64,000 nt of DNA from the NCBI RefSeq assembly GCF_018350175.1, contig NC_058368.1:39496001-39560000 (forward strand), given 5' to 3'. Origin of the DNA: Felis catus. Its lineage: Eukaryota. Position 1 is the stretch's first letter; each line of letters begins with the position of its first letter. The position numbers were made by a program, and so were the translations under genes. Positions 6,001-60,077 of the stretch are shown here, piece by piece. Under the pieces are notes generated by a model. That model saw nothing but the letters and a program-made list of their open reading frames with translations, had not been told where the DNA came from and did not search any database.

Positions 6001-6674
6001 CCTTGCCCATCATATTTTATGAGGGTATAAGGATTGAAGTTACCTTCTCTGAGTCCATTTAAAAAAAAAATATGTGGCTTTAGCAAATTAAATCCATGAA
6101 CCTCCACCGTCAGTTTAACACATAGTTGACATTGTCTCACAATGTGAAATTTGCTCACCCAAAGTAGAGTGTGATGTAGAGAATAATGAGTTTTTAGATT
6201 GTTTGTTGGCAGAAAAGTGACATGCTGGAAATGATCTGTTCTATGTATCCAATAGTATTCAACTGATGTTCAATGAAATTTAGGCCAGAAAAGATACGGA
6301 AGTCATTAGTAAATGAATTGAACTTGACAGTTCCATATATAAACTGCTCTAAATGTATCTAGATAGAGGCAGCATTAACAAATAAAACCTATTTTTTAAA
6401 AACTTGAACATACCCTTCTTTCTCAACTGTATAAAGCTAGAATGTAAATTGTTGTGTTATAACTAATGTATGCAATAGAGCTGCATAAAAGCTCTAAAAT
6501 TAATAATAATATTAATAATATGATTATTCAAAAAGATAATGTATTCTCTGGTTATTTGAAACCTTCAGTCATTAAGTACATCATCTAATATTTATCTTAT
6601 TGAAACGCGTATGAATAAAATCTGGAAATCACGGCACCTTGTTTATTTCTTCATCCACTGATTTAAAAGAATCA

Positions 6675-8410
6675 TCAAGATTGCTTTGGCTATTTGGGGT
6701 CTTTTCTGGTTCCATACAAATTTTGGGATTATTTGTTCTAGCTCTGTGCAGAATGCTGGTGTTATTTTGATAGGGATTGCATTGAATATGTAGATTGTTT
6801 TGGGTAGCATCGACATTTTAACAATATTTGTTCTTCCTATCCAAGAGCATGGAATCTTTTTCCATTCTTTTGTGTCTTCTTCAATTTCTTTCATAAGCTT
6901 TCTATAGTTTTCAGTGTACAGATTTTTCACCTTTTTGGTTTGATTTATTCCTAGGTATTTTATGGGTTTTGGTGCAACTGTAACTGGGATCGATTGCTTG
7001 ATTTCTCTTTCTGTTGTTTCATTGTTGGTGTACACGAATGCAACTGATTTCTGTGCATTGATTTCATATCCTGCAACTTTGCTGAATTCATGAATCAGTT
7101 ATAACAGTTTTCAGTGGAATCTTCTGGGTTTTCCATGTAGAGTATCATGTCATCTGCAAAGAGTGAAAGTTTGACTTCCTCCTGGCTGATTTGGATGCCT
7201 TTTATTTCTTTGTGTTGTCTAAATACAGAGGCTAAGACTTCCAATACTATGTTGAATAAGAGTGGTGAGATTGGACATCCCTGTCTTGTTCCTGACCTTA
7301 GGGGGAAAGCTCTCAGTTTTTCCCCATTGAGGATGATATTAGCATTGGGTTGTTCATATATGACTTCAAGCTATACTACAAAGTTATAATCATCAAGACA
7401 GTATGGTAGTGGAACAAGAACAGACACTCAGATCAGTGGAACAGAATAGAGAACCCAGAAATGGACCCACAAACGTATGGCCAACTAATCTTTGACAAAG
7501 CAGGAAAGAATATCCAATGGAATAAAGACAGTCTCTTCAGCAAGTGGTGCTGGGAAAACTGGACAGACACATGCAAAAGAATGAACCTGGACCACTTGCT
7601 TACACCATACACAAAAATAAACTCAAAATGGGTGAAATACCTACATGTAAGACAGGAAGCCATCAAAATCCTCCAGGAGGAAGCAGGCAAAAACCTCTTT
7701 GACCTTGGCCTCAGCAGCTTCTTACTCAACATGTCTCCACAGACAAGAGAAACAAAAGCAAAAATGAACTACTGGGACCTCATCAAAATAAAAAGCTTCT
7801 GCACAGTGAAGGAAACAATCAGCAAAACTAAAAGGCAACTGAAAGAATGGGAGAAGATATTTGCAAATGACATATCAGATAAAGGGTTAGTATCCAAAAT
7901 TGATAAAGAACTTATCAAACTTAACACCCAAAAAACAAACAATCCAGTGAAGAAATGGGCAAAAGACATGAATAGACACTTCTTCAAAGAAGACATCCAA
8001 ATGGCCAACCGACACATGAAAAAATGCTCCACATCACTCATCATCTAGGAAATACAAATCAAAACCACAATAGATACCACCTTACACCTGTTAGAATGGC
8101 TAACATTAACAACTCAGGCAACAACAGATTTGGCGAGGATGCAGAGAAAGAGGATCTCCTTTACATTGTTGGTGGGAATGCAATCTGGTGCAGCCACTCT
8201 GGAAAACAGTATGGAGGTTCCTCAAAAAACTAAAAATGGAACTATCCTACGACCCAGCAATTGCACTACTAGGCATTTACCCAAGGGATACAGGTGTTTT
8301 GTTTCGAAGGGACACATGCACCCCAATGTTTATAGCAGCACTATCAACAATAGCCAAAGTATGGAAAGAGTCCAAATGTCCATCGATGGACAAATGGATA
8401 AAGAAGATGT

Positions 8411-8461
<51 letters not shown>

Positions 8462-8849
8462 ATACATAATGGAGTATTACTCGGCAATCAAAAAGAATGA
8501 AATCTTGTCATTTACAACTACATGGATGGAGCTGGAGGGTATTATGTTAAGTGAAATTAGTCAGAGGACAAAAATCATATGACTTCACTCATATGAGGAC
8601 TTAAGAGACAAAACAGATAAACATAAGGGAGGGATACAAAAATAATGTAAAAACAGGGCGGGGGACAAAACATAAGACACTCAGGAGAACAAACTGAGGG
8701 TTATGGGAGGAGTTGCGGGAGGGGGGATGGGATAAACGGGTAAGGGGCACTAAGGAATCTACTCCTGAAATCACTGTTGCACTATATACTGACTAATTTG
8801 GACATAAATTTAAAAAAATAAATAATAAAATAAAAATAATAAAAATAAA
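6675..8849 (+). mobile_element. 5'-truncated, 5'-inverted LINE-1 (older carnivore subfamily)
   Basis: 6675-7361 is ORF2 RT-region sequence on the minus strand ([16 protein letters not shown]...RPQIAKAIL). 7362-8849 is the plus-strand continuation (DFKLYYK..., [12 protein letters not shown]), then 3'UTR and A-rich tail. TSD aaaagaatca (6665-6674) / aaaagaaaca (8850-8859) at a TTT/AAAA site. Carries stops and frameshifts. Confidence 0.95.
8413..8466. repeat. (TA)n(TG)n microsatellite inside the L1
   Basis: Seen directly. Confidence 0.95.
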
Positions 8850-11800
8850 AAAAGAAACACTTCAAAATAATTAGCATCAGTTGCTTTTTATACATGGAAA
8901 TAAAACTTACTTCATCATCTGTGTTAATGATTCAATCTTAAAATTTATGATTCCTTAATTTAATTTTTCAGGACAATTTTTTTTATCATTCTCTACAACT
9001 TCTTTGTATGTTAGAAGATATAATTTAGATAATTGTCTTTGGTTACTTTATATTGTTACCACTAAAACCTTCTCTATTTTGTTATCTTTCTTGAAGAAAC
9101 TAATATACAGGAAGTAAGAATGTTTTGACCAATGTAAAGTGGCAAAAAGTTCTTAGAAAATACTGGTTAGTTCATACCCTATTAAATTTTTCAATTTAGA
9201 TATTGCACTGAGTATCTAGTTGAATATAAATTGATATAAAATAATATGGCTGTAAAGTTTTTCTGTTTTTTCCCTTGGGTGTTTAGTATAACATTAACAG
9301 AGACAGTTAAATATACACAATTATACAATGCTACTTAATTTTACATTTAATAGTTAGTAATTATAATTACAAAGGATGGCCTGGCTAGGGCTGATCAAAT
9401 GTCCTCTTCCCTGGGGAAAGGTGAAATGCAACATTATGCAAATTTATTTCACAGTGGCTTCTTGGTGATTTTTTTTTTCAATTCTTGGGCCTTTTTACCT
9501 CTATCTTCTCTGACATGTGTTCCTTCATGCAGAAATACCCTTCTTTTCTAAATTTTTGGAATCTCTTGGACATTGGCATTGTTTTGATTAATGATCTCAT
9601 TTTTATTCATTCTAGTTAGATCTTGCTGAACAAAAATGTCCTTTTCTTAACTTTAGCAATGACTTTTTATTCTTAAGGTTACCACTGAGGCACTCAAACA
9701 TTACTCTATGCAAGTTCTCAGACACCTTTATAAAACAGAGCTTTAGAACTCAAGGCTCCTAATCAGCAAGTCCTTTCTTTTTGTTCAATAAGAACATTTG
9801 CTATTAAGTAGCCAAAATTTAGAAAGAATTTTACTATCTTTATTTAATCTACACAATAAAATTGGTCTGCTAAATTCAACATTATGATCATCATACAATG
9901 AACACATTATCACTCATAATACCTCAAATCCATAACCATGCATGTATTTGTTCTGTTCATTTTTACTCTAATGCCTTTTTATTTTCAATCATTATATTTA
10001 AAAAGAGGAACTTAATTCCTTACTGTGTCACATAGTGTTTTGGATGTATTAAATATTTTATATGCATTATAGTGAGACATATTTGATATTCTTGTTTGGT
10101 GAAACCAAGGTAAATTGGAAAAATTTGTTTAACCTCTCCTTCAGAGGAATTTACCGAGCATATTCAAAAAGAAGAGAACATGACTGTATTTTCATTGAGA
10201 TATGCACATCTACTTCCCTGTGACCTGATGGAAACATTCAGAGTTGAGTTATATTTTATGTTTGTAGGTCGAACAAAAGGTGTTTTTGATATTATTTAGT
10301 TTTCAGGCACTGTATGTATTCACACCATTAATTATTAATTATTCACAGATTTGCTTAATAATTGTCAAGGCTTTATTCTGAGTTGCACTGGACAGGGGCA
10401 TGTCAATTCATGTCTTTTGTCTGTCTATATCTTCTATGTATATTGCTGCAGTCAAATTGCTCAAGAAACCATGGCATCAATTGTTAAGGTGGCCAAACGA
10501 ACTGCAGTATTCTCTAGCTAATGCATTTTTCACAGAAATGTTACAATATAGTGACTTTGATCTAAAGGCAATTTAAATATAAACAAATTCAATATTAGTT
10601 CAGCTACAATCTGTCAATTATCTTCATATTTCCTATGTGAATACATTTTCTAATATAATACAGCTTCTATGAAACAAATAGTGCTATTTATTTTCATGCT
10701 TTATCTTAAATATAAAGTATTAACTTTCATGTAAGCAATCACTGGTACAGAGAGAACATTGGGAAACATATTGGAAATTAACATAATTATATCAAGAGTT
10801 CCCTAGCGGTCAAGAGCATTAGTACTCAAATTGCATTATGAATATGCAAATCCAATATTTTTGATTTAGGTCATTTGTCACTGGTATCAGAAATTGCAAG
10901 TCACTGCTGGGCTGTCTAAACTTCTGAAAGAGCTTCAGGTGACTGGTGACTTAATTCAAAAGAACCTTCTGGTACATCAACAATCTATCTGAACTGTATA
11001 AGATCTACTGATAGGCAAATTTCCTTTATGTTCTCACTTTGTTTAAGCACTAGCACACAATCTCCCTTTCCATTCGTCTTACGTTTTGGAGTGATGGAAA
11101 GGCACTGAATGAAGAGCAATTCCTCTGAAACTGGTCTTTATCAGAAGCAATTATATTTGGGTAAAATATGAATTCAGAATCAAACTTACATTCAGTTTGC
11201 TCACCTAGCTAGTGCTTATTCCTCTGTTGTGCAAGGATCATTACTTTTAAACTGTGAGTTTAGATCATTAATTTATTAATTTTTAACTGTGATTACAGAT
11301 ATTCAGCTTGCAGCTGGATTTATATAGCATGCAAACACTTGTATAGGGCATAAAATTTGAACAGGTCATAAGTGCAGAAGTGGTGTTGCTAGATACTTAT
11401 CGCATGCCATGACAAATGGGTGCAGCTCAATGAATCGGATATTAGAATGTTATTTTGCAGCATACTTCAGCCACTTCCATAGAGACAAGGCTGCTGTTAG
11501 TTGCATACTAAATATTGTTCTGACTTAGATCATTCCATCCAAATATAGACAGGTAAAAGAAAGGAATTAAACTAATAAGTGATAAATAATTTTCAAGATA
11601 AATAAAAAGAAAAAAACAATATTGGCTACAAATTTGCCTCTCTTCAGGAACTTACTTGTTTCATAACTTTGCCAAATTATATGACCTCTCTAAGATTTAT
11701 TTACAGGATGATTATGAGAATTAAATAGTATTCATAGTAAGCAATTAACAGCATGCTTGGTATATAAAAGATACCAGAGAACACTTAGAAAATAAGTTTA

Positions 11801-19489: not shown

Positions 19490-21645
19490 TAATTTAGAAC
19501 GTACAATAGGTTTCTGTTGCCTTTCTGTTATTGATTTCTAGTTTTATTCCATTATCATCAGAGAATACACTCTGTGGGATGCCAGTTCTTTTAAGTTTAT
19601 TGAGGCTTGTTTTAGGATACAAAATATGACCTATCTTGGTGAATGTCTTATTGGTGCCTAAAATAAAATTGTGTATTCTCCTGTTGTTGAGTGGATTGTT
19701 CAATATATATATCAATTAGATACTGTTTATTGATTGTGTTCTTCAGATCATCTACGTCCTTTTAAATTTTCTTTCTAGTAGTTTTATCAGTTTCCAAGAG
19801 GGGTGTTGAAAACTGTAATTGTGGATTTGTTTATTTCTCTTTTCAACTCAGTTTTTATGTATTTTTGAAGTTTTATTTTTTAGTGTGTACACTTTTATGT
19901 CTTCCTGCTGAATTGAACTTTTATCATTATTTAATGTCCTTCTATGTCTCATATAATTTTATTTGTTCTATGGTCTAATTTACATATAGGTATATACATA
20001 TATAGCCATTTACGTTTGTTTTAAATTAATGTTTTAAATTAATGTTACATGGCATTTATTTTTTCCATTCTTTTACTTTCAATTTGTCAATATCATTGAA
20101 TTTGTAGTGAGCTTCTTATAATTTGAATATATATGGGACAATTTTTAAAATCCAATGTCTGGTTTTTGATTTGTGTATTTATATCTTATACATCTAAAGT
20201 GATTACTGATACATTAGTGCTTTACTCTGCCATTTTTATTATTTTCTTTATTTCTTGTTTCCTCTATTCAAGACTTCCTGTGTGTTACTTGAGTAGTTTT
20301 TTTAAAGATTTTGTCTTGTTTTATCCACAGATATTCCTCAATTTATGATAGGGTTATGGCCCAACTATGTTACTGTGTAGCTGACTGGGAGCTCAGTCAG
20401 CTGAGCTGGGAGCTCAGCTTGCTGCCACTGCCCAGAATCACAAGAGACTCTACCAAACATTGCTAGCCTGGGAAAAGATCCAAATACAAAATTGAAAGTA
20501 GTTTCTGCTAAATGCGTATCAGTTTTGCACCATCATAAAGTTGACATATCCGAAATTGAGCCCTCATAAGTTGGAGACCATCCGTACAGTGTTTTTGAGT
20601 ATTGTATTTGCGTTGTATCTGTTGTACTTGCTATGGGTATTACAATATACATGTGTGACAGTGCAGTCTACATGTTCTGTGTTTTACCACTTCAGGTCAA
20701 GTATGAAAATTTCATTTCTACTTATATCCCTTGACATTCTCTAGTAAAACATTATCATGATTATCAGATGTTATAAGTTTAGTTTCAACCATCCAACATG
20801 ACATAAAATCCACGAGGAAAGGGCGCTGTATTGTGTGTGCGTATACTTCTGCCCTACGTACCACACTGATCCTCTGGGACTCTCTTTCATCATGTCTTTT
20901 CTGCTCAAAGAACTTCTTTCAGCCAATCTTAAAGTGGGTCTTGTAGCAAAACATTCTTTAGTTTTCCTTCATCTGAGAATTTCCTCATGTCCCCTTCATT
21001 CCTGAGGGTATAGTTTTCACCAGATACAGAATTCATAATAGGTAGTTGTTTCCTTCCAGCATTTGGAAAACTGTGTATCACTTTGTTCTGCCCTCCATGA
21101 TTTCAGATGCATTCTTTGGCATTCAGTTCTCTGACATTCTTTACCTACTGGTAATACATCATTTTTCTCTAGCTGCTTTCAAGGTTCGTGGGTTTTTTGT
21201 TTTTTTTTTTTTTGCTTTTTGTTTGTTTTTTGTTTTGTTTTGTGTTTTATCCTCTCTAGCTTTTAGAAGTGTAAATATGATGTGCCTTTGGCATAGATTT
21301 CTTTGGGATTATCCTGTTTGGGATTTGGTCAACTGCCAGAATGTGTAAATTTGTGTTTTTGCCAAATTTGGAAAGTTTGCATCTATATTACTGCTTAAAA
21401 TAGTATTTTAATGTCATTTTTTTTTCTTTTCCCTCTGGGATTGTGATGTTAGGAATATTGGGAATTTTGTTGTTATCCCACAGATCCTTGAAACTCCATT
21501 TCTTGTCTCGTTTCTCTTCACTGTTCAGGTTGGGTAAATTTTATGAATCTGTCCTCAAGTTCACTGATTCAGTCAACTGTCATCTCTACCACTGGGCCCT
21601 TCCATTTTGTTATTTCTGTTCTTGTATGTTTTCATTTCTATAATC
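19490..21645 (-). mobile_element. Ancient L1 (L1M) fragment covering the ORF2 endonuclease and ORF1 region, interrupted by a MITE
   Basis: The ORF at 19494-19715 reads TFTKIGHILYPKTSLNKLKRTGIPQSVFSDDNGIKLEINNRK, homologous to ORF2 EN ([11 protein letters not shown]...[11 protein letters not shown]). Upstream is a T-rich antisense ORF1-like sequence. Confidence 0.8.
20328..20584. mobile_element. Tigger-type MITE (MER47/Tigger5-like)
   Basis: Degenerate TIRs cagatattcctcaatttatga / tcataagttggagaccatccg followed by TA. Internal gctgactgggagctc...gggaaaagatccaaa motif. Confidence 0.7.
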
Positions 21646-22096
21646 CGTTATATATATATATATGTATATATATACACATACACACATATATATATATGAA
21701 AATTAAAATTTTTTAATTAATAAACTTTATTTTTAAAGTAATTTGAAATTTTCAGAAAAATTGAGCAGAAAGTATAGAGCTCCCACATACCACTTCATCT
21801 GACCCCCAAACATATATACAGTTTCCCCCATTATTAACATCATGCATTAGTGTGGCACACATTGGTTACAATCAATGAGTCAATATTGACATATTATTAT
21901 CAACTAAAGTCCATACTTTACATTAGGGTTCATTCTTTTTGTTGTAAATTCTATGGGTTTTAACAAATGTATGGTGACTTGTATCCACCCTAACAGTATC
22001 ATATTGAAAAATTTTACTACACTAACAATTCCCTGTGTTTCACTTATTCATCCCCCTCTCCCTTCCCTAGAACGCTTGGCAACTATTGATCTTTTT

Positions 22097-22309
22097 TTTT
22101 TAATTTTTTTAACATTTATTTTTGAAGGAGAGAGAGACAGAGCATGAGCGGGGGAGGGGTAGAGAGAGAGGGAGACACAGAATCCAAAGCAGGCTGCAGA
22201 ATCTGAACCATCAACACAGAGCCCAGTGTGGGACTTGAACCCATGAACTGTGAGATCATGACCTGGGCCAAAGTCAGACAGTTAACCGACTGAGCCACCC
22301 AGGTGCCCC
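22097..22309 (-). mobile_element. Can-SINE
   Basis: Full head, body and tail. TSD gcaactattgatcttttt (22079-22096 / 22312-22329). Confidence 0.95.
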
Positions 22310-22945
22310 AAGCAACTATTGATCTTTTTACTGTATCTTTAGTTTTCTTTGGTCAAGAATGTCACATAATTGGAATTATATAGTACATCACCTTTTCAGA
22401 TAGATTTATTTCTTTAGCAATACAAAATTAAAATTCCCATTCTTTTCATGGCTTGATAGCTTTTTCCTGGAGGGGCACTGAATATATTTCTTCTATCACT
22501 GTACAACAGTTTGTTCACCTTGAAGGGCATCTTTGTGTCTTCTAAGTTTTGGCAATTATGGATTAAATTGCTATTAAACATTTATGCGCAGGTTTTATGT
22601 GGACATACTTTTTAATGTATTCTAGTAAACACTAAGGATCATATGATAATTATGTTTAGGTTTGCAGAAGACTGCCAAACTGTTTTCAGCGTGGCTGTAT
22701 TGTTTTATATTTCCACCAGTAATGAATAAGGGTTTCTTTTGCAGCATATTTTCTCCAGCATTTGGTGTTACCAATGTTCTGGAGTTTGGCCATCCTAATA
22801 GATGTACAGAGATACATCATTGCTTTAATTTTCTCTCTTGATAGCTGATGTTGAATAATACCTCATATGCTTATTTTCCATTTGTGTAACTTCTTTGGTG
22901 AAGTATCTCTTAGATCTTTTGATCATTTTAAAATTGGGTTGTTTA

Positions 22946-23143
22946 GGGGCACCTGAATGGCTCAGTTGGATAAGCATCTGACTTTGGCTCAAGTCATGGT
23001 CTCCCAATTCGTGAGTTCAAGCCCCATGTTGGGCTCTGTGTTGACAGCTCAGAGCCTAGAGCCCATTTTGGACTCTGTGTCTCCCTCTCTTCCTACCCCT
23101 TCCCCAACTTGCACTTTCTTTCTCAAAAATAAATAAACATTTT
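22946..23143 (+). mobile_element. Can-SINE
   Basis: GGGGCACCTGAATGGCTCAG head. Degenerate TSD aaattgggttgttt / aaatggtttgttt. Confidence 0.93.
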
Positions 23144-28516: not shown

Positions 28517-28842
28517 TTCATTTTTAACACTATCACTATAATTTTGTTGAGAATTCAGAGAATAGAGAAACAATACACAGTATTCCTATTGCCCAAGAAA
28601 TGTATCAGCATCCTGTGGAGAGTTGTGCAAGGTTTATTTTAGAGAGTAGTACCACAAATGCCTAGTTATAAGATCAAGGTGCAGTAGACAAAATCAGAGT
28701 TGAATTTCATGTTCTTCACTTATTTGTGACCATGCTACAGGTGAAATGTGCAGATGTGATGAATAAAATTTAGGTGATTCAAAGCACTTGAGTGAAGCTT
28801 AAAATGTATGATTCAGAAGTAGATGTTTAAAAATTGCACACA

Positions 28843-29054
28843 GGGGCTCCTGGGTGGCGCAGTCGGTTAAGCGTCGGACTTCAGCCAGGTCACGATCTCG
28901 CGGTCTGTGAGTTCGAGCCCCGCGTAGGGCTGTGGGCTGATGGCTCAGAGCCTGGAGCCTGTTTCCTATTCTGTGTCTCCCTCTCTCTCTGCCCCTCGCC
29001 CGTTCATGCTCTGTCTCTCTCTGTCCCAAAAATAAATAAACGTTGAAAAAAAAA
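28843..29054 (+). mobile_element. Young Can-SINE (SINEC_Fc-like)
   Basis: CpG-rich with intact A and B boxes (GGCGCAGTCGG; GAGTTCGAGCC). Perfect TSD ttaaaaattgcacaca (28827-28842 / 29055-29070). Confidence 0.97.
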
Positions 29055-31830
29055 TTAAAAATTGCACACAATTTTTGAGGAAAAATCTGAGATTATATAA
29101 ATAGTATTTTGACCAATCTAGAACCACTAGATTCATATTTTCATTGATTTTGTTTCTAGTGCCAATAATAAAAACATGATATTTAGAAGACTGCAGATTA
29201 GGATGCATTTTTAATTATCCAACAGGCCTACTAAAATGTGAACAGATGGTAAACGCAAATCTTACTTAATTGGAAAACTGGCGTTACGAGAAATAACTAA
29301 GTAGGAAAATATTTGCGTTAAATATACTTAGCAATTGAATTACATCATATTTGTACATATCTGTTTATGAAGGCATCTTTAATATTAAACAGGTTCTGAT
29401 TTTACACTAACCTGTTTTAAAGAGTTAATATTTATTTATGGGGAGAGGGATTGGTAACTAGCAAATTGGAATGGGCACAGTGATATTTAAGAGGATCACT
29501 TGATAATCCCCCACAGATTGGAGCTACCATTCCCAATTCTTTTATTTCCTGTTGCCTAGAAGCAATAGCAAAGTATTTCTTCTCAGTATCATTTGTGGGG
29601 CAGAAGATGATCAAGTTTTATGGATACACATTCTACAGTCTCATTTCCATCAGCTCTGGAATTGTTTCACTGATAAGCACTAACAGGAGGGAGATAGAAG
29701 TAAAATTTATAACCCTCTTCTAAATCTTCGTGATTCCTGTGAACGGCAGCAGATCACTCTTGCCTTGGCTGACACAAACTACCACCATGATCAAAAGGCT
29801 ATAATAATGCTGTTTTATTAAGAAAGATAGCAGTCAAAAAGGTGAGATTCCCAGAGGCAAAGAAATAAATAAAAACAGCAGTAACAGAATGAAAGAAGAT
29901 GGTATAAAGTACTATTTAGGGCAATAACCGAGTAGAATGAGAGATAATATGCAAATCTCGTGCTGGGAATCTGAATTGGATTTTTGTAAACATCAGTTTC
30001 TGACTGTAATATCCCAGTAACTAGTAAATGGTGACCTTAGTATTAACTAAACTGAGTACTGGGGAACACAGAACAGAAAGCTTGCGTCACAACTCCACCT
30101 TAACAAAGATAGGGATGTAGTAGGAAGAGTGGCTACGCTGAAAAGTGCCATTGAGTATGGCTTCACTGGGGTGTCCTGTGTGGGTTCAGCTATCATGTGT
30201 TAATACTATATTTTTCCCAAACAAATTATACATTGTCAAAAGCCTATTAGGAGAGTAGCAGTCCACGCATATATTTTTGGATCGTGGGGGAGTAATAGCA
30301 TCACGTAATCATATGGAGATTCATTAGTTAGTTCATTGTTCAAAGTATGCGATAGTATCAACTAGTAGATCCCCAGAATTCAACTCGGCTTTTTTGAGCT
30401 GAAAATGCACAATATGATGATGTTTCCTTTAAAGGTCATTCACCATTATAAGGCAAAAATTCAAAAAGCCATATTGATTATGAGGGGGACTTCCATCATA
30501 CCTTTAGTCACCTATATTACATTCTGAGGCATTTAGCACAATCAAAATCCATCATTAAGTACTGCTTCAGCCCCGGGCAGTACCTATTTTCGTTTCACAT
30601 TGACTTAAATGTTTTTACTAATTTTTAGTATCCTTGGAAATTGTAGCAGATTTATTTTACAGATAAGAAGACTGAGAACCATTTCATTGGAATAATTGTT
30701 CAGCATCACATTAGTTGATTATCGGATGATAACTAGAAAATAGTTCACCTTGTCAGCCACTCATATCTTAATTACTTGTGTGTTATTGAGCTCCAACTCT
30801 TGTTGAAATGTAAGCTCCACAAGGCCAGGGGCAGGTATGTGTTTCTGTGCTGTACTCTGTATACTTAGCACCTGAAGTACAGATGCTTAATATTGTTTCA
30901 AAGATTGCACGGAGGTTGATATTCATAAGAATTTTTTATCAAAATTGAGATTTGTTACTTAAAAAAAGATCATTGAGATTAACTTTGCTTTGTTTTTATA
31001 TGGTGTCAGTTCCTACATACCTGTTTTAAAAGAACTTTAAAAGCATAAGTATTATTGAATTAAGCTGTAGTCTTGCAGACTTGCAGAATAAAGCATTTGA
31101 ATATTGACATTCCGCAGAGCTGAAAGGTCGAGATTCTTGTGGAGCAAATGCGAACAAGGACTAGAAATGTTAACATGAGCAGGGGACACAACTAAGAGAG
31201 ACCGCATGTTGCAATTATAGACCTCCATCATGCATTTGTAGCCATGAGAACATTTATCATCAATACGTTATCAGTGTGTCTTTTTAAAAAACAATTTAAT
31301 TGCTAATACAGTGGGCAAATTCAGTTATTTTACTTCATAGACTGTCAATGGGCAATTATAAGGCAGTCCTAGGAATAAAGCATTATCTTCCACCAAACCA
31401 ATTACTTAAGTTTAATCTTAGGCCTTTTTCCTCATTTACTTAACTGCCTTGCTATTTATTCTCTCCCTTAAACATAACACCTGATCATTTGTCTCAGTTA
31501 TGTTAAAAAAATGAATTATGTGGGAAGAAATTCAACTAGTTGTTTGGCAAGACAGAGACAAAATAAAACCATCAATTAAATGACAAATATGTAACTTTTC
31601 TAATGTTGGTAGTGGGAGATGGATAGGTTATTTTGAGCTAATGTCTAACATTTTTTTGGTTATCTAGACAATTCTAATGGGTCTGTTTTTACATATGTAA
31701 TTTGAAAACCTCAAATAATAGAAATTTAATGAAATACACCATCTAAACTTGGAAATTTTCAAATTTCAATTAATATTTTAAACATACCTCATGGAGGAAA
31801 TGCAAGGTCATTAAGAATATTCTCTTAGGA

Positions 31831-32759
31831 GAGGAAGCGGCAAGATGGCGGCTTAGGAGGACGCTGGGCTCACCGCGCGTCCTGCTGATCACTTAGATTC
31901 CACCTACACCTGCCTAAATAACCCAGAAAATCGTCAGAGGATTAGCAGAACGGAGTCGCTGGAGCCAAACGCAGACGAGAGGCCCACGGAAGAGGGTAGG
32001 AAGGGCGGCGAGGCGGTGCGCGCTCCACGGACTGGCGGGAGGGAGCCGGGGCGGAGGGGTGGCTCGCCGGCCAAGCAGAGCCCCCGAGTCTGGCTGGCAA
32101 AAGCGGAGGGGCCTGAAGGACTGTGTTCCCACAACAAGCGCGACTTAGCGTCTGGGAGGTCATAAGTTAACAGCTCTGCTTGGAAAGCGGGAAGGCTGGA
32201 GGACAAAGGGAGGGAGAGCTGCTGAGCCCCCTGACGACAGAGCTCAGCTTGGTGGGGAACAAAGGCGCTCGCCAGCGCCATCTCCCCCGCCCATCCCCCA
32301 GCCAAAATCCCAAAGAGAACCAGTTCCTGCCAGGGAACTTGCTCGCTCCGCGCAAACACCCAACTCTGTGCTTCTGTGGAGCCAAACCTCTGGCAGCGGA
32401 TCTGACTCCCTCCCGCTGCCACAGGGCCCCTCCTGAAGAGGATCACCTAAGGAGAAGCGATCTAAGCCTGCCCCTCCTGCCCCCGTGCACCTTGCCTACC
32501 CACCCCAGCTAATACACCAGATCCCCAGCATCACAAGCCCGGCAGTGTGCAAGTAGCCCAGACGGGCCACACCACCCCACAGTGAATCCCGCCCCTAGGA
32601 GAGGGGAAGAGAAGGCACACACCAGTCTGACTGTGGCCCCAGCGGTGGGCTGGGGGCAGACATCAGGTCTGACTGCGGCCCCGCCCACCAACTCCAGTTA
32701 TACACCACAACACAGGGGAAGGGCCCTGCAGGTCCTCACCACGCCAGGGACTATCCAAA
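31831..32759 (+). promoter_or_regulatory. L1 5'UTR internal Pol II promoter (CpG-island-like) with YY1 site
   Basis: CAAGATGGCGG at 31841-31851. This is the only long GC/CpG-rich stretch in the window. Confidence 0.9.
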
Positions 32760-33653
32760 ATGACCAAGCGGAAGAATTCCCCTCAGAAGAATCTCCAGGA
32801 AATAACAACAGCTAATGAGCTGATCAAAAAGGATTTAAATAATATCACAGAAAGTGAATTTAGAATAATAGTCATAAAATTAATCGCTGGGCTTGAAAAC
32901 AGTATACAGGACAGCAGAGAATCTCTTGCCACAGAGATCAAGGGACTAAGGAACAGTCACGAGGAGCTGAAAAACGCTTTAAACGAAATGCATAACAAAA
33001 TGGAAACCACCACAGCTCGGCTTGAAGAGGCAGAGGAGAGAATAGGTGAACTAGAGGATAAAGTTATGGAAAAAGAGGAAGCTGAGAAAAAGAGAGATAA
33101 AAAAATCCAGGAGTATGAGGGGAAAATTAGAGAACTAAGTGATACACTAAAAAGAAATAATATACGCATAATTGGTATCCCAGAGGAGGAAGAGAGAGGG
33201 AAAGGTACTGAAGGGGTACTTGAAGAAATCATAGCTGAGAACTTCCCTGAACTGGGGAAGGAAAAAGGCATTGAAATCCAAGAGGCACAGAGAACTCCCT
33301 TCAGACGTAACTTGAATCGATCTTCTGCACGACATATCATAGTGAAACTGGCAAAATACAAGGATAAAGAGAAAATTCTGAAAGCAGCAAGGGGTAAACG
33401 TGCCCTCACATATAAAGGGAGACCTATAAGACTCGTGACTGATCTCTCTTTTGAAACTTGGCAGGCCAGAAAGAATTGGCACGAGATTTTCAGGGTGCTA
33501 GACAGAAAAAATATGCAGCCGAGAATCCTTTACCCAGCAAGTCTGTCATTTAGAATAGAAGGAGAGATAAAGGTTTTCCCAAACAAACAAAAACTGAAGG
33601 AATTTGTCACCACTAAACCAGCCCTACAAGAGATCCTAAGGGGGACCCTGTGA
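32760..33653 (+). CDS. L1 ORF1p (RNA-binding chaperone), 297 aa
   Basis: ATG to TGA uninterrupted. Coiled coil, RRM ([15 protein letters not shown]) and CTD motifs QARK and YPASLS. Confidence 0.97.
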
Positions 33654-33706
33654 GGAGACAAAGTCCCAGAGACATCACTACAAGCATAAAACATACAGAC
33701 ATCACA

Positions 33707-36700
33707 ATGACTCTCAACCTGTATCTTTCTATAATAACACTGAATGTAAATGGATTAAATGCACCAACCAAAAGACATAGGGTATCAGAATGGATAAAAA
33801 AACAAGACCCATCTATTTGCTGTCTACAAGAGACTCATTTTAGACCTGAGGACACCTTTAGATTGAGAGTGAGGGGATGGAGAACTATTTATCATGCGAC
33901 TGGAAGCCAAAAGAAAGCTGGAGTAGCCATACTTATATCAGACAAACTAGACTTTAAATTAAAGGCCGTAACAAGAGATGAAGAAGGACATTATATAATA
34001 GTTACAGGGTCTATCCATCAGGAAGAGCTAACAATTATAAATGTCTATGCGCCGAATACCGGAGCCCCCAAATATATAAAACAATTACTCATAAACATAA
34101 GCAACCTTATTGATAAGAATGTGGTAATTGCAGGGGACTTTAACACCCCACTCACAGAAATGGACAGATCATCTAGACACACGGTCAATAAAGAAACAAG
34201 GGCCCTGAATGAGACATTGGATCAGATGGACTTGACAGATATATTTAGAACGCTGCATCCCAAAGCAACAGAATATACTTTCTTCTCGAGTGCACATGGA
34301 ACATTCTCCAAGATAGATCATATACTGGGTCACAAAACAGCCCTTCATAAGTTTACAAGAATTGAAATTATACCATGCATACTTTCAGACCACAATGCTA
34401 TGAAGCTTGAAATCAACCACAGGAAAAAGTCTGGAAAACCTCCAAAGGCATGGAGGTTAAAGAACACCCTACTAACGAATGAGTGGGTCAACCAGGCAAT
34501 TAGAGAAGAAATTAAAAAATATATGGAAACAAACGAAAATGAAAATACAACAATCCAAACACTTTGGGACGCAGCGAAGGCAGTCCTGAGAGGAAAATAC
34601 ATTGCAATCCAGGCCTATCTCAAGAAACAAGAAAAATCCCAAATACAAAATCTAACAGCACACCTAAAGGAACTAGAAGCAGAACAGCAAAGGCAGCCTA
34701 AACCCAGCAGAAGAAGAGAAATAATAAAGATCAGAGCGGAAATAAACAATATAGAATCTAAAAAAACTGTAGAGCAGATCAACGAAACCAAGAGTTGGTT
34801 TTTTGAAAAAATAAACAAAATTGACAAACCTCTAGCCAGGCTTCTCAAAAAGAAAAGGGAAATGACCCAAATAGATAAAATCATGAATGAAAATGGAATG
34901 ATTACAACCAATCCCTCAGAGATACAAACAATTATCAGGGAATACTATGAAAAATTATATGCCAACAAATTGGACAACCTGGAAGAAATGGACAAATTCC
35001 TGAACACCCACACTCTTCCAAAACTCAATCAGGAGGAAATAGAAAGCTTGAACAGACCCATAACCAGCGAAGAAATTGAATCGGTTATCAAAAATCTCCC
35101 AACAAATAAGAGTCCAGGACCAGATGGCTTCCCAGGGGAGTTCTACCAGACGTTTAAAGCAGAGATAATACCTATCCTTCTCAAGCTATTCCAAGAAATA
35201 GAAAGGGAAGGAAAACTTCCAGACTCATTCTATGAAGCCAGTATTACTTTGATTCCTAAACCAGACAGAGACCCAGTCAAAAAAGAGAACTACAGGCCAA
35301 TATCCCTGATGAATACGGATGCAAAAATTCTCAATAAGATACTAGCAAATCGAATTCAACGGCATATAAAAAGAATTATTCACCATGATCAAGTGGGATT
35401 CATTCCTGGGATGCAGGGCTGGTTCAACATCCGCAAATCAATCAATGTGATACATCACATCAACAAAAAAAAAGAGAAGAACCATATGATCCTGTCAATC
35501 GATGCAGAAAAGGCCTTTGACAAAATCCAGCACCCTTTCTTAATAAAAACCCTTGAGAAAGTCGGGATAGAAGGAACATACTTAAAGATCATAAAAGCCA
35601 TTTATGAAAAGCCCACAGCTAACATCATCCTCAACGGGGAAAAACTGAGAGCTTTTTCCCTGAGATCAGGAACACGACAAGGATGCCCACTCTCACCGCT
35701 GCTGTTTAACATAGTGCTAGAAGTTCTAGCATCAGCAATCAGACAACAAAAGGAAATCAAAGGCATCAAAATTGGCAAAGACGAAGTCAAGCTTTCGCTT
35801 TTTGCAGATGACATGATATTATACATGGAAAATCCGATAGACTCCACCAAAAGTCTACTAGAACTGATACATGAATTCAGCAAAGTTGCAGGATACAAAA
35901 TCAATGTACAGAAATCAGTTGCATTCTTATACACTAACAATGAAGCAACAGAAAGACAAATAAAGAAACTGATCCCATTCACAATTGCACCAAGAAGCAT
36001 AAAATACCTAGGAATAAATCTAACCAAAGATGTAAAGGATCTGTATGCTGAAAACTATAGAAAGCTTATGAAGGAAATTGAAGAAGATTTAAAGAAATGG
36101 AAAGACATTCCCTGCTCATGGATTGGAAAAATAAATATTGTCAAAATGTCAATACTACCCAAAGCTATCTACACATTCAATGCAATCCCAATAAAAATTG
36201 CACCAGCATTCTTCTCGAAACTAGAACAAGCAATCCTAAAATTCATATGGAACCACAAAAGGCCCCGAATAGCCAAAGGAATTTTGAAGAAGAAGACCAA
36301 AGCAGGAGGCATCACAATCCCAGACTTTAGCCTCTACTACAAAGCTGTCATCATCAAGACAGCATGGTATTGGCACAGAAACAGACACATAGACCAATGG
36401 AATAGAATAGAAACCCCAGAACTAGACCCACAAACGTATGGCCAACTCATCTTCGACAAAGCAGGAAAGAACATCCAATGGAAAAAAGACAGCCTCTTTA
36501 ACAAATGGTGCTGGGAGAACTGGACAGCAACATGCAGAAGGTTGAAACTAGACCACTTTCTCACACCATTCACAAAAATAAACTCCAAATGGATAAAGGA
36601 CCTAAATGTGAGACAGGAAACCATCAAAACCTTAGAGGAGAAAGCAGGAAAAGACCTCTCTGACCTCAGCCGTAGCAATCTCTTACTCGACACATCCCCA

Positions 36701-37531
36701 AAGGCAAGGGAATTAAAAGCAAAAGTGAATTACTGGGACCTTATGAAGATAAAAAGCTTCTGCACAGCAAAGGAAACAACCAACAAAACCAAAAGGCAAC
36801 CAACGGAATGGGAAAAGATATTCGCAAATGACCTATCGGACAAAGGGCTAGTATCCAAAATCTATAAAGAGCTCACCAAACTCCACACCCGAAAAACAAA
36901 TAACCCAGTGAAGAAATGGGCAGAAAACATGAATAGACACTTCTCTAAAGAAGACATCCGGATGGCCAACAGGCACATGAAAAGATGTTCAGCGTCGCTC
37001 CTTATCAGGGAAATACAAATCAAAACCACACTCAGGTATCACCTCACGCCAGTCAGAGTGGCCAAAATGAACAAATCAGGAGACTCTAGATGCTGGAGAG
37101 GATGTGGAGAAACGGGAACCCTCTTGCACTGTTGGTGGGAATGCAAATTGGTGCAGCCGCTCTGGAAAGCAGTGTGGAGGTTCCTCAGAAAATTAAAAAT
37201 AGACCTACCCTATGACCCAGCAATAGCACTGCTAGGAATTTATCCAAGGGATACAGGAGTACTGATGCATAGGGCCACTTGTACCCCAATGTTCATAGCA
37301 GCACTCTCAACAATAGCCAAATTATGGAAAGAGCCTAAATGTCCATCAGTTGATGAATGGATAAAGAAATTGTGGTTTATATACACAATGGAATATTACG
37401 TGGCAATGAGAAAAAATGAAATATGGCCTTTTGTAGCAACGTGGATGGAACTGGAGAGTGTGATGCTAAGTGAAATAAGCCATACAGAGAAAGACAGATA
37501 CCATATGGTTTCACTCTTATGTGGACCCTGA
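33707..37531 (+). CDS. L1 ORF2p (endonuclease/reverse transcriptase), 1274 aa from the first ATG
   Basis: EN motifs LNVNG, LQET, GDFN and SDH; PIP-box-like KSWFFEK; RT motifs QGCPLSP and FADD; C-terminal [18 protein letters not shown]. The ORF track start at 33650 is a GTG, and the first ATG is at 33707. Confidence 0.98.
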
Positions 37532-37794
37532 GAAATTAACAGGAACCCATGGGGGAGGGGAAGGAAAAAAAAAAAAAACAGGTTAGAGTGGGAGAGAGCC
37601 AAAGCATAAGAGACTCTTAAAAACTGAGAACAAACTGAGGGTTGATGGGGGGTGGGAGGGAGGAGAGGGTGGGTGATGGGTAATGAGGAGGGCACCTTTT
37701 GGGATGAGCACTGGGTGTTGTATGGAAACTAATTTGTCAATAAATTTCATATAAAAAAAAATAAAATATAAAATAAAAAAAAAAATAAATAAAA

Positions 37795-37960
37795 TTTAAA
37801 ACACTGTAAACATGAGAAAAAAAATTTAGTCAAACAAAACAAAATGTGTTATTGAATATTTTTTTTCAAAAATAGACTTTACTCTATCTCAAACAAAAAA
37901 TAATGAGATTAAAATATTTTATAATGATGAATTCTTTCCTAAATAAAGTGCTCAAAATAC
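37795..37960 (+). other. 3'-transduced flank of the source L1
   Basis: Non-L1 sequence between the first A-rich tail (about 37751-37794) and a pure A27 (37961-37987), with AATAAA at 37942-37947. Lies inside the TSDs. Confidence 0.9.
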
Positions 37961-39399
37961 AAAAAAAAAAAAAAAAAAAAAAAAAAAGAATATTCTCTTA
38001 GGAAAAAATAATATTCTATTAGATATATAAAAGCAAAGTGCAATATATGTTACAAAATAAACTCTGATAAATTTATTTTAAAGTCCTTTGAATTTTTTTT
38101 GAAATTGTATAATACATTCCTCACTCTAGCAGTATATATGCAAGCCTTTATATTTTTTCTTGGAGGCGAATATTAAGGAATTCAAATCATCAGCCTGTTT
38201 ACCATGTTTTTCTGTGATTTATCAGGGAAGTCAACAAACCACTTCAGTTTTCTTCTGGCAGTAAAATAGGAAACGAGTGTCCAGGGAACATAAATCTACT
38301 GTGACTTTTCTATCCAATTTCAGTTGTTCTGCCACCATTGATTCCAATGTGTCACACTGTGTGAGAACAATGGAAATTAACACTATGTTGGGACTGCCAA
38401 ATTCATTTCACACAACAGTAATCGCAATAATAACCAAAATAATATATAATCACCCATGAGAATAAGCACAATTCCATGAATCAGAGTCCTAAAGAAATCA
38501 GTCTCAGTCAAAAGAAAATCAGACAAATGTTTTTAAAGAGATTAATGATTCTACCCCATTCCTTGTTTTGCTGGTTTTCATGAGCATCTGTTACGTGGGA
38601 ATACATTTTGTTTTACAGGTTTTTTTTGTTGTTGCTGTTGTTGTTGTTTTATCAGGCAGATGTTTGTATTTTCTCATCCTAGTAATTGGAAGAGCAATTA
38701 GAGACAATGAGAAGGCAACAAAGAGGAACTTTGCCAAAATCTCTTGGTTAAGCTGAATTTCCAACAAACTACCTATGAAATATATTTTACTCTATTTGGC
38801 TAAGCAGAATATTCAAGAACACTTCATTTTTACCCTTTGGCAAACAACCACTCTGGCTGTGAAGTAGGTGAAAGGTATTGTCAGTTTTTGAACAAAAAAA
38901 AAAAGTTTAATCGGGATAAATCCAATTTATGGCAGCCTGTGAAATTTCTCTTCAGTTTAACCTTTGTATTTTTATTTTCTCTTCTTTCATTTATATTCAT
39001 CTATAAATCTTTTTTTTTATTCTGATGCAAAGCCTTCATGAGCCTCAGATTCAATGTATATTAAATGCCATATTGTAGTTCCATATCCAGGCCATCTCAT
39101 ATCCCAAAATTGTATCACTGCTCCTCAAAGAGAACGTTGAGCACATGGAAATATGTATTCCAAGAGTCCTTTCTGAAGGATATTATGAAATACTGTGCTA
39201 AACCTGAAACAGCTCAGCACAATATACAAATATTGGGTTAGGCAAATTTATAAACAATATTAAGATATATTCTTATATTGACTAGAGAGAGCAGCTGACG
39301 AATTTATGAGAGAAATAAATACAAAATGCTTGATATTGGGAAGTGTACACATTCAGTCTAAGGAATATTTTCTTGAATACCTCAAAATATTAGCCTTGC

Positions 39400-42350: not shown

Positions 42351-42363
42351 AAATTCAAAGAAA

Positions 42364-42573
42364 GGGGCGCCTGGGTGGCTCAGGCAGTTGGGCGTCTGAC
42401 TTTGGCTCAGGTCATGTTCTCACAGTTTGTGAGTTCAAGCTCCGCATCAGTCTTTGTGCTGACAGCTTGGAGCCTGGAGCCTGCTTCGGATTCTGTGTCT
42501 CCTTCTCTCTGCCCCTCCTCAACTTGTGCTCTATGTCTCTCAAAAAATAAATAAATGTAAAAAATTTTTTTTT
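42364..42573 (+). mobile_element. Can-SINE nested in the tail of the preceding SINE
   Basis: TSD aaattcaaagaa (42351-42362 / 42574-42585). Confidence 0.95.
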
Positions 42574-50702: not shown

Positions 50703-50921
50703 TTTTTTTTTTAATTTTTTTTAATGTTTATTTATTTTTGAGAGAGAGAGACAGAGTGTGAGCAGGGAAGGGGCAGGGAGAGAAAGACACAGAATCCGAA
50801 GCAGGCTCCAGGCTCTGAGCTGTCAGCACAGAACCCAACGCAGGGCTCGAACCCACAAAACGTGAGATCATGACCTGAGCTGAAGTTGGAGGCTCAACTG
50901 ACTGAGCCACCCAGGCGCCCC
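50703..50921 (-). mobile_element. Can-SINE
   Basis: Perfect TSD atcctcattacttttc (50687-50702 / 50923-50938). Confidence 0.96.
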
Positions 50922-52267
50922 AATCCTCATTACTTTTCATAAGTACACAGGACAGATCAGTGTTAATATAATTTTACATGTAAAATTCTGGAATGTGTTA
51001 TGTACATGTAATATAGTACTTCAGTGCATTACTTAGGACATTATCATTAATCCATCCTCTTCACTTCATTCAGAAGTCTGGGTAAGCATGGCTACTTAAT
51101 TGATGATGTCACTGAGAAATGTTGACTTTTGACCCCATCTGTATGCCATGACATGTTTGAAGCAACCATATTATATGTTGCACTGTATTCCTCTCAGATT
51201 ATCTTGGAGCTTTGTGAACAGTTGTGATTGTATTTCCATAAACATGTGCTTACTGGATAATCAATTTCATTTTAGCAATGAAAATCTTCTTTGACTTGTT
51301 AAAAAAAGGAGGGGGGTCAACATTAAAGATCAAAGTAGCAGAGTGCAAACTGCAGAGGAGTTTCAATAATAATTTTGACCAATTGCTAGGCATAGAACAA
51401 CCTGTAAAATAAATCAAATTAACAAATATATTTAAGCAACTATAATAAAATATTTTCAATATTTAAGAATCCAGATTCAAAATGATATAATATTAAAATC
51501 ACCGTTTGATCACTATGTAATTCAGCAATTTGATGCACTCATGTTATAAAATGGCTTTTATTGTAAAACACTTCTGAGCTCTTTTGCAAGATATTCTATT
51601 ATTTTCTTACATACTCTGCATTAAGCCCAATAGGTCTATAAAATGCCTTTATCCAGTGGTGATAGAGACCATAAAACCAGCTGAATAACTGAACATTTCA
51701 TTTCACTTCACCACTAACTAGTCTTATAAAGATCACTGAGGGAATGCCATTTTTATATTTTTTCCCAATACTAAACTTCTTTTCTGAAATTTTAATGCCT
51801 CTTTTGTGAAAGATTACTTTAAATCCCATTTAAAGCTATTAGATTTCTCTGATGAATATTTTAGAGATATGTCTCATGACACTCTTAAAATTAAAAAAAA
51901 AACAATACTAAGGGAAAATATCTTTCATGTCAAGAAACTGAATCATTCAAAGTCATTTTAATCAAGGCATATCTCATGTATAATTTTAGATATCAATCCA
52001 CAAAACTTTATAAAGCATTTTTATATACGAATGACCAATTTGTGAAAAGTGGAATGAACGTTGTAGATAAATCTAAAAGATACATAAAAATTATTTTACA
52101 TAAAACATCAAATCATTATTCCATGCTGTTTACATTTATTTTTTTGAAAATAAACATGTTAGTTCATATTTGACAAAGACAAGCATGAAGCTTTATGCCA
52201 TCAAGGATACAGATATGAGTCAAAAAAATCATACATGATGACTACATTTCAGTGTTGACTAAGTCAC

Positions 52268-52635: not shown

Positions 52636-52794
52636 CAAATTTGCATGAAAAAAACCTATTACTGTAAATTTAGTCTACTCTTTGAGCTAGAGAAGTGTGC
52701 ATCTCTAAGTGTCTGCCTGATGCACATAACTTTATGAACAAAATTAATAAGGCAGCTTTTTATTCAAACCACTAAGAAGCATAGATTTACCTTT

Positions 52795-53202
52795 TGCATT
52801 CGTCTGAGTCCTTCAGAAAAACAAAATAAATAGGACACACATGCACACACACACACATACATGTACACATATAGTGAGGATGAGTCATCTCAAGATCTGC
52901 AGTCAATGACCAAGGCAAACTGATGGTATATTTCCAGTCTAAATCTGAGTCTGAGGGCAAGACCAGGGTCCCAGGTCAAAGACAGCAGAGAGAGCAAATT
53001 ATCCCTTACTCAGCCTTTTGTCCTATCTAGGCCTTCACAGATTGGATGAGATCCAGTGACATTGGAGAAGGCAAACTGGTTTACTCAGTTAACGAATTCA
53101 GATGTTACTCTCACTCAGAAATACCCTCATAGACACAGTCATGAAAATTTTTAACCAAATATCTGGGCCCACTCAAGTTGACACATAAAATTAACCATTA
53201 TA
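52795..53202. mobile_element. ERVL solo LTR (MLT2-like)
   Basis: Starts tgcattcgtctgagtccttcaga with (CA)n, and ends caagttgacacataaaattaaccat. 5-bp TSD CCTTT (52790-52794 / 53203-53207). Confidence 0.85.
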
Positions 53203-53628: not shown

Positions 53629-53888
53629 GTGTATGTGTGTGTGTGTATCCTATTTGTTTTTCTGGAGGACTCAAACTAATACAAAAGGTAAATCTATGCT
53701 TCTTGGTGGTCTGAATAAAAAACTGCCTTGTTAATTTTGTTCATAAAGTTATGTGCATCAGGCAGACACTTAGAGATGCTGACAGTGTGGAGCCCGAGGC
53801 AGGGGTAGATCTCACCAACTGTTGAGATCATCACCTGAGCCAAAATCAAGAGTCGGACACTTAACAGGCTGAGTCACCCAGGCACCCC
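53494..53888 (-). mobile_element. Can-SINE split by a 190-bp insertion
   Basis: Tail half at 53494-53588 and head half at 53779-53888. TSD cactgatct (53485-53493 / 53891-53899). Confidence 0.9.
53589..53778 (-). repeat. Inverted duplicate of 52699-52870
   Basis: Reverse complement reads catctctaagtgtctgcctgatgcacataactttatgaacaaaattaa..., matching from 52700 onward. Flanked by a duplicated ctgacag. Confidence 0.95.
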
Positions 53889-59420: not shown

Positions 59421-59883
59421 TGTCATTACCCTTCTTTGCTGTGTGGTGATACCTATATTTGTCTTATTTCATTGCTACATTATAGCCATTTGCACATACT
59501 CTGAACTTGTAGCATTATACCCTGAGTGTTCCCTGCTTTTGGAAAAGATTAAATGAGTGAATAAACATCCAAGGCACTTACATTAAGCAATTGATACACA
59601 AAATTGGTTACAAGTGGTGGTCTTGAGCTCTAGGCACTGCAGGTAACAGGAAAGAATCATAAATTTGTGATGTAGCCAGGATGAAGGATAATTCAAGGTC
59701 AACTGTATAAATGGAATGTGTGCATGATATTTAAAGTTAGTCAAATTTCAGCTTTTAAAAAACTATCCTAGCCAAACAAAATATGGCTTCAAGCTCAATC
59801 TATGTTTCTGTTCACCTTTTCAGGATCTCTGATTAGAACAAGGGGTTTATAAGTAAATAATTGGAGACAAAATAATGTAGTGA

Positions 59884-60077
59884 GGGACACCTGGGTGGCT
59901 CAGTCAGTCAAGTGTCTGACTTTGGGTCAGGTCATGATCTCATGGTGGGTGAGTTGGAGCCCTGCATCAGGCTGTGTGCTGACAGTTCAGAACCTGGAGC
60001 CTGCTTCAGATTCTGTGTCTCCCTCTCTCTCTGCCCCTCCCCCCTCTCAAAAGTAAATAAACATTAAAAATAATAAT
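59884..60077 (+). mobile_element. Can-SINE
   Basis: TSD aataatgtagtga / aataatgtggtga. Confidence 0.93.

Follow-up and report, generated by a model that had tools for sequence, protein, structure and literature searches.

Partnered 3' transduction by human L1 elements is said to have been described by Moran in 1999, Goodier and Pickeral in 2000 and Szak in 2003. The mechanism is textbook, and transductions are routine in both human and dog. A candidate partnered 3' transduction is operationally defined by a two-tail layout, each tail being at least 10 nt long at 90% purity, and 466 of 5,311 polymorphic human L1 insertions (8.8%) carry a transduction, mostly 3', in the accessible text of PMC12350158. 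For human source elements, the available part of bioRxiv 10.1101/2024.08.27.596794 describes transductions that stop 234 and 64 bp further on, at a downstream polyadenylation signal.

Among carnivores, the canine L1_Cf elements provide the nearest comparison. One comparison of dog genomes yielded 18 3' transductions, 17 of them 'parentless' in the assembly (PMC7980453, in its available part). A later one covers 322 loci; among them is a full-length insertion whose source, intact and dimorphic, was identified, and 10 copies share one tag (PMC13103737 and the review PMC13756887, as far as their accessible text goes). The full-length intact L1 (FLI-L1) class was catalogued in 2016 by L1Base 2, which held 1 such element for the cat against 264 for the dog, counts that the authors tie generally to assembly maturity in the accessible text of PMC5210629. 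What of the cat itself? Our search of mostly open literature, in main texts, found no title devoted to L1 transductions or source elements of the cat, and neither is mentioned in the available portion of the paper on the cat assembly (PMC12789764).

Here we analyse a 64,000-nt stretch of the forward strand of the Felis catus genome (assembly GCF_018350175.1, contig NC_058368.1, positions 39,496,001 to 39,560,000), referred to as the window, with positions counted from its first letter. On every feature that can be read from it, one element in the window is probably a partnered transduction. We place the probability at about 0.85 that one recent insertion event brought in an L1 together with a partnered 3' transduction, a reading based on two A-tails split by non-L1 DNA, one target-site duplication (TSD) around the whole, and a full-length L1. 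The order is that of the human cases, L1, first A-tail, unique DNA, second A-tail and a single TSD, and the transduced DNA likewise ends after a downstream polyadenylation signal; here, in a cat, this is known from the sequence of the insertion alone. The L1 is a carnivore element like that of the dog, whereas the dog cases have been mapped to donors.

The insertion measures about 6.15 kb between the TSD copies, and its L1 is full-length, with a body at about 31829 to 37752. L1 5' UTRs have a promoter role. This one, at 31829 to 32759 on the plus strand like all the features of the insertion, is about 930 nt long and GC- and CpG-rich, with a CpG observed/expected ratio of 0.53. ORF1 (32760 to 33653) is open and encodes 297 aa with the expected Pfam domains. 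Its product is identical at 291 of 297 residues (98%) to the representative of a Felis catus UniRef cluster with 234 members. The 234 near-identical ORF1p sequences in that cluster show young cat L1 copies to be numerous, despite the single FLI-L1 tabulated in 2016, and this L1 is a member of the cat's young L1 family. One of the six differences, counted against that single representative, is T150, where the representative has A. Comparison with Panthera leo entries gave a best full-length identity of 88%, and 95% with a partial entry over 59% of the query. The canine L1_Cf lineage differs, the best dog ORF1p among the matches listed being 52% identical.

ORF2 (33707 to 37531) is likewise open, and encodes 1274 aa with endonuclease, reverse transcriptase and a C-terminal CCHC motif. 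The protein has the expected Pfam domains and aligns lengthwise to the solved human ORF2p at 1986 bits. Mapping the known catalytic positions of human ORF2p through this alignment shows that N13, E42, Y114, D144, N146, D204, H229, D599, D701 and D702 are all kept, together with the CCHC motif at 1129. ORF1 and ORF2 run without frameshifts over 4.7 kb. A letter-for-letter look-up of the exact ORF1p and ORF2p sequences in the protein collection found neither of the two. The copy thus resembles the FLI-L1 class in being full length with ORF1 and ORF2 open, and the features of that class are present: a length of about 6 kb, a 5' UTR, both reading frames, the endonuclease and reverse transcriptase catalytic residues, and the CCHC motif.

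The 3' UTR (37532 to 37752) contains the element's own AATAAA at 37739–37744. It is followed by an interrupted A-rich tail (37750 to 37794) that is 82% A over its length and 88% A over 37753–37785, with a pure A11 at 37775–37785 and four additional AATAAA motifs at 37760, 37772, 37784 and 37788. Next comes sequence unlike L1, the candidate transduced tag (37795 to 37960), then a pure run of 27 A (37961 to 37987). A second AATAAA, read directly from the window at 37942–37947, is separated from this run by 13 nt (37948–37960). Both the pure A27 and the inner A11 are of the length and purity that the human tail rule asks for. The outer tail is 100% A against 82% for the inner one, which is old-looking and would be the aged genomic tail of the parent; the A27 would be the tail of the retrotransposed RNA itself. 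Within 56,812 nt of examined flank there is no run of A or T of 20 or more. The two AATAAA signals, the interrupted tail, the 13-nt spacer, the pure A run and a 3' TSD after it had been noted in an earlier sequence-only reading, and each coordinate that it gave is confirmed here. Its figure of about 165 bp for the transduced DNA agrees with the 166 nt at 37795–37960, with the qualification that the 5' boundary is fuzzy, lying as it does in an A-rich tail with further AATAAA motifs, so that the tag is about 166–200 nt long. The span it marked ends at 37987, with the pure A run; the final two A of that run belong to the 3' TSD.

The TSD is the feature that binds these parts together. An 18-mer at 31813–31830 is repeated exactly at 37986–38003 and is the longest exact match between 31700–31900 and 37700–38100. 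Sixteen of its nucleotides are certain, and the final two of the 5' copy could be the start of the L1. The chance of a 16-mer match over these 200 × 400 position pairs is about 1e-4, and there is no third copy on either strand of the window. TT precedes the 5' copy, and the resulting site, TT/AAGA, is of the endonuclease type, one mismatch from the L1 endonuclease consensus 5'-TTTTT/AA given in the available part of PMC7980453. This single TSD encloses the L1, the first tail, the tag and the second tail, and therefore one insertion is indicated. Had the tag already been part of the target, as the sequence-only reading allowed? The 3' TSD copy sits beyond the tag and the final tail rather than right after the first tail. 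The tag was therefore inserted and not pre-existing, and presence at the empty site finds no support in this indirect test; the position of the TSD implies that an empty allele would have a single TSD copy and no tag. Separately, the stretch 37982–38022 holds the target site and, after it, a degenerate repeat of that site (period 21, 90% match), which provides another AT-rich endonuclease-like site adjoining the one that was used.

The second AATAAA would have been used by the read-through transcript. However, when the tag was put through 20,000 dinucleotide shuffles, an AATAAA lay 10–30 nt before the end in 2661 of them (13%), and in the flanks the same spacing occurs at 2.7–4.8% of positions. 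Taken alone, the second AATAAA counts for little, and the main weight falls on two tails inside one TSD. The earlier reading of the segment as a 3' transduction agrees with all of the anatomy and with the indirect tests.

Does the L1 body really end before the first tail? An older L1 in the window, at 6672–8857, provides a reference. It is arranged with a 5' inversion, 6672–7366 being antisense and 7362–8857 sense, a twin-priming layout; no clear TSD was detected for it. It is 82% (6672–7366) and 76% (7362–8857) identical to the young copy. Its terminal 20 nt, at 8792–8811, are homologous to 37728–37747, matching at 17 of 20 positions with a score of 25, which was reached by none of 1500 random window segments, and an A-rich tail follows in both places. 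By comparison, the tag scores 27 against the sequence after the older L1, a score reached by 105 of 1500 controls, and the match consists of the A-rich tail alone. The L1 body would accordingly end at about 37750, before the first tail, as judged against a copy of an older family (76–82% identity). Two far older remnants of L1 ORF2 lie on the minus strand at 19515–19812 and 22521–22959, with 32–45% protein identity.

The sequence-only reading had named a normal subfamily 3' end as the finding that would overturn a transduction, and the homology with the older-family L1, an indirect test, lends that no support. On this alternative, a transduction that took place long ago became fixed in a master element, and the tag is now how many copies of one young cat L1 sub-lineage normally end, so that it would mark a subfamily and not a parent. 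As the reference copy belongs to an older family, the homology result is compatible with young elements having a longer end of their own, and a multi-copy sequence would also place tag words in all 14 of the genome-sized sequencing runs described below. Yet the terminus homologous to the older copy precedes the first tail, and the young cat L1 consensus, as we take it to be, stops at the first tail too. We regard this alternative as very unlikely.

The tag itself is 166 nt of 80% A+T with a longest open frame of 38 codons. Its landmarks are a TGTA at 37805, an A8 at 37817–37824, a TGTG at 37845 and a T8 at 37859–37866. It has an internal degenerate repeat (37830–37862 against 37889–37920, 79%) and an imperfect palindrome (37857–37902), both probably due to chance in AT-rich DNA. 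Comparison with the whole window revealed no source for it, which is compatible with a more distant chromosomal one. The longest exact match of the tag elsewhere in the window is 14 nt, and the best alignment scores 43. With 37701–39000 left out of the targets, 19 of 200 dinucleotide-shuffled sequences and 5 of 60 AT-rich segments of natural DNA scored as high; a local templated copy was rejected, the match being no better than controls. The same match had beaten 12 of 12 block shuffles (43 against 31–39), a signal left unconfirmed by the larger controls. A likeness of 37882–37920 to SINE tails (74–82% over 33–40 nt) was also dismissed as within control noise. Exact primer scans with the tag in metagenome contigs, and with the L1 3' UTR in metagenome and viral contigs, returned nothing and are uninformative, as these collections apparently lack cat L1 DNA.

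An end such as that of the tag, with AATAAA, 13 nt and an A-tail, is mRNA-like, and could have been produced by two events or from two templates. In the first case a short 5'-truncated retrocopy, of an mRNA 3' end or an orphan transduction, would have landed in the A-tail of the L1; in the second, reverse transcription would have switched from another polyadenylated RNA to the L1 RNA. The A11 at 37775–37785 could conceal an all-A duplication, and the accessible text of PMC4476161 names, among the ways in which tripartite structures may arise, a second insertion in the 3' extremity of a first. Against this, a rare second event would be needed within a 45-nt target in a young element, as opposed to a base rate of 8.8% for transduction among polymorphic human L1s. 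Known RNA/L1 chimeras, moreover, place the foreign RNA 5' of the L1 in the available parts of PMC4476161 and PMC13174262, the latter a catalogue of 5' partners only, and the two-template version fits poorly with that arrangement. At our locus the L1 body is 5' of the extra sequence and in the same sense, as in a partnered transduction. A template-switch chimera of the U6/L1 or mRNA/L1 kind was ruled against on the 3' position of the extra sequence and the lack of any Rfam match over 37500–38100 at E values up to 1. Two events or two templates seem to us a quite improbable origin.

An index of sequencing runs was queried with 37795–38300, from which 52 words were sampled. Of the 24 rows listed, 14 are genome-sized runs that belong to a single organism and come from 8 studies; one of them may be the window's own source, and all 14 hold a share of 0.90. 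By k-mer count the predicted shares are 0.60 for the flank alone, 0.29 for the tag alone, and 0.88 for tag and flank without the junctions. Given a share of 0.90 against 0.60 for the flank alone, and a chance of 5e-4 that at most 5 of the 52 words fall in the tag, the tag is therefore present in all 14 genomes, where its position is not given by word share. The ceiling of 0.90 in every run agrees with a donor locus and a separate empty site, a hint of a rare insertion. The five missing words have a probability of 0.17 under absent junctions and 0.13 under one private SNP in a fixed insertion, and poor indexing of A-rich words may be another source of them.

None of the six indexed RNA rows is labelled with the organism of the 14 genome runs, many runs not being served by the index. 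A high-copy L1 end would be expected in many RNA runs at about 0.29, and the absence leans weakly against that as well as against a commonly expressed mRNA end, and thereby bears on both of the alternatives above. A run labelled 'feline metagenome' holds 0.48 of the flank-and-tag words, and three metatranscriptome rows hold 0.42–0.60, above the 0.29 of the tag only; the metatranscriptome shares probably reflect host DNA. Three RNA rows with shares of 0.04–0.06 were set aside as no evidence.

The word shares also bear on whether the tag was joined to the L1 by the assembly, through the A-rich tails. No listed run holds all the words of the tag, tail and flank stretch (maximum 0.90), and A-rich junctions are, as a matter of general knowledge, error-prone. 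On the other hand, an exact and unique TSD closes the structure, both reading frames are free of frameshifts, and the window contains no N. A misjoin is also unlikely to stop 13 nt past an AATAAA and then restore a TSD. An artefact is, in our view, scarcely credible.

If the insertion is a partnered 3' transduction, how would it have arisen? A parent L1 elsewhere would have been transcribed past its own polyadenylation signal and aged genomic A-tail into 170–200 nt of flank. The strength of a polyadenylation signal is linked to a downstream GU- or U-rich element. After the first AATAAA there is none before 37845–37866, and this late position may weaken the L1's own signal. The read-through RNA would then have been cleaved 13 nt, or a little further, past the flank AATAAA at 37942 and polyadenylated there, and the parent's ORF2p would have reverse-transcribed the whole 6.15-kb RNA into the site by target-primed reverse transcription. 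The new copy, with both polyadenylation contexts and intact ORFs, would be able to hand the same tag to its progeny, and on this basis it could become a secondary source of tagged insertions.

A variant of the transduction reading has two steps, with the A8 at 37817–37824 as the remnant of an earlier tail. This A8 lies 23 nt past the AATAAA at 37788. The variant is speculative, since 41 runs of A or T of at least 8 occur in the flanks, and we think it rather improbable even if the transduction itself is accepted. The tag may also fail to single out one parent in any one assembly, as may be judged from the 17 'parentless' cases among the 18 dog transductions in the accessible text of PMC7980453.

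Elsewhere in the window, 52699–52825 and 53653–53779 form an inverted repeat of 127 nt, 94% complementary and 827 nt apart, which looks like a local inverted duplication. On their inner sides the arms pass into microsatellites, CA and TG, and a SINE-like fragment is enclosed between them. At least 12 copies of a tRNA-type SINE, presumably Can-SINE/SINEC, are scattered over both strands, for example at 20–239, 22092–22311, 28841–29061, 42363–42541, 50704–50946 and 59883–60043.

For the biology of the cat, the tag offers a barcode for finding the parent and currently active cat L1s, as has been used in dogs. A more far-reaching proposal, which we hold only tentatively and consider unlikely on balance, is that this cat L1 inserted very recently, is rare or dimorphic and is a candidate for retrotransposition competence, and that its tag, possibly acquired in two steps, marks a hot lineage with several siblings segregating in domestic cats. 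If such a hot tagged lineage exists, a felid would have an active L1 lineage defined by its transduction, of which our literature search found none described, and the present copy would lend itself to a cell assay. Dimorphic siblings with a shared tag would point to a source that is still producing insertion mutations in cats.
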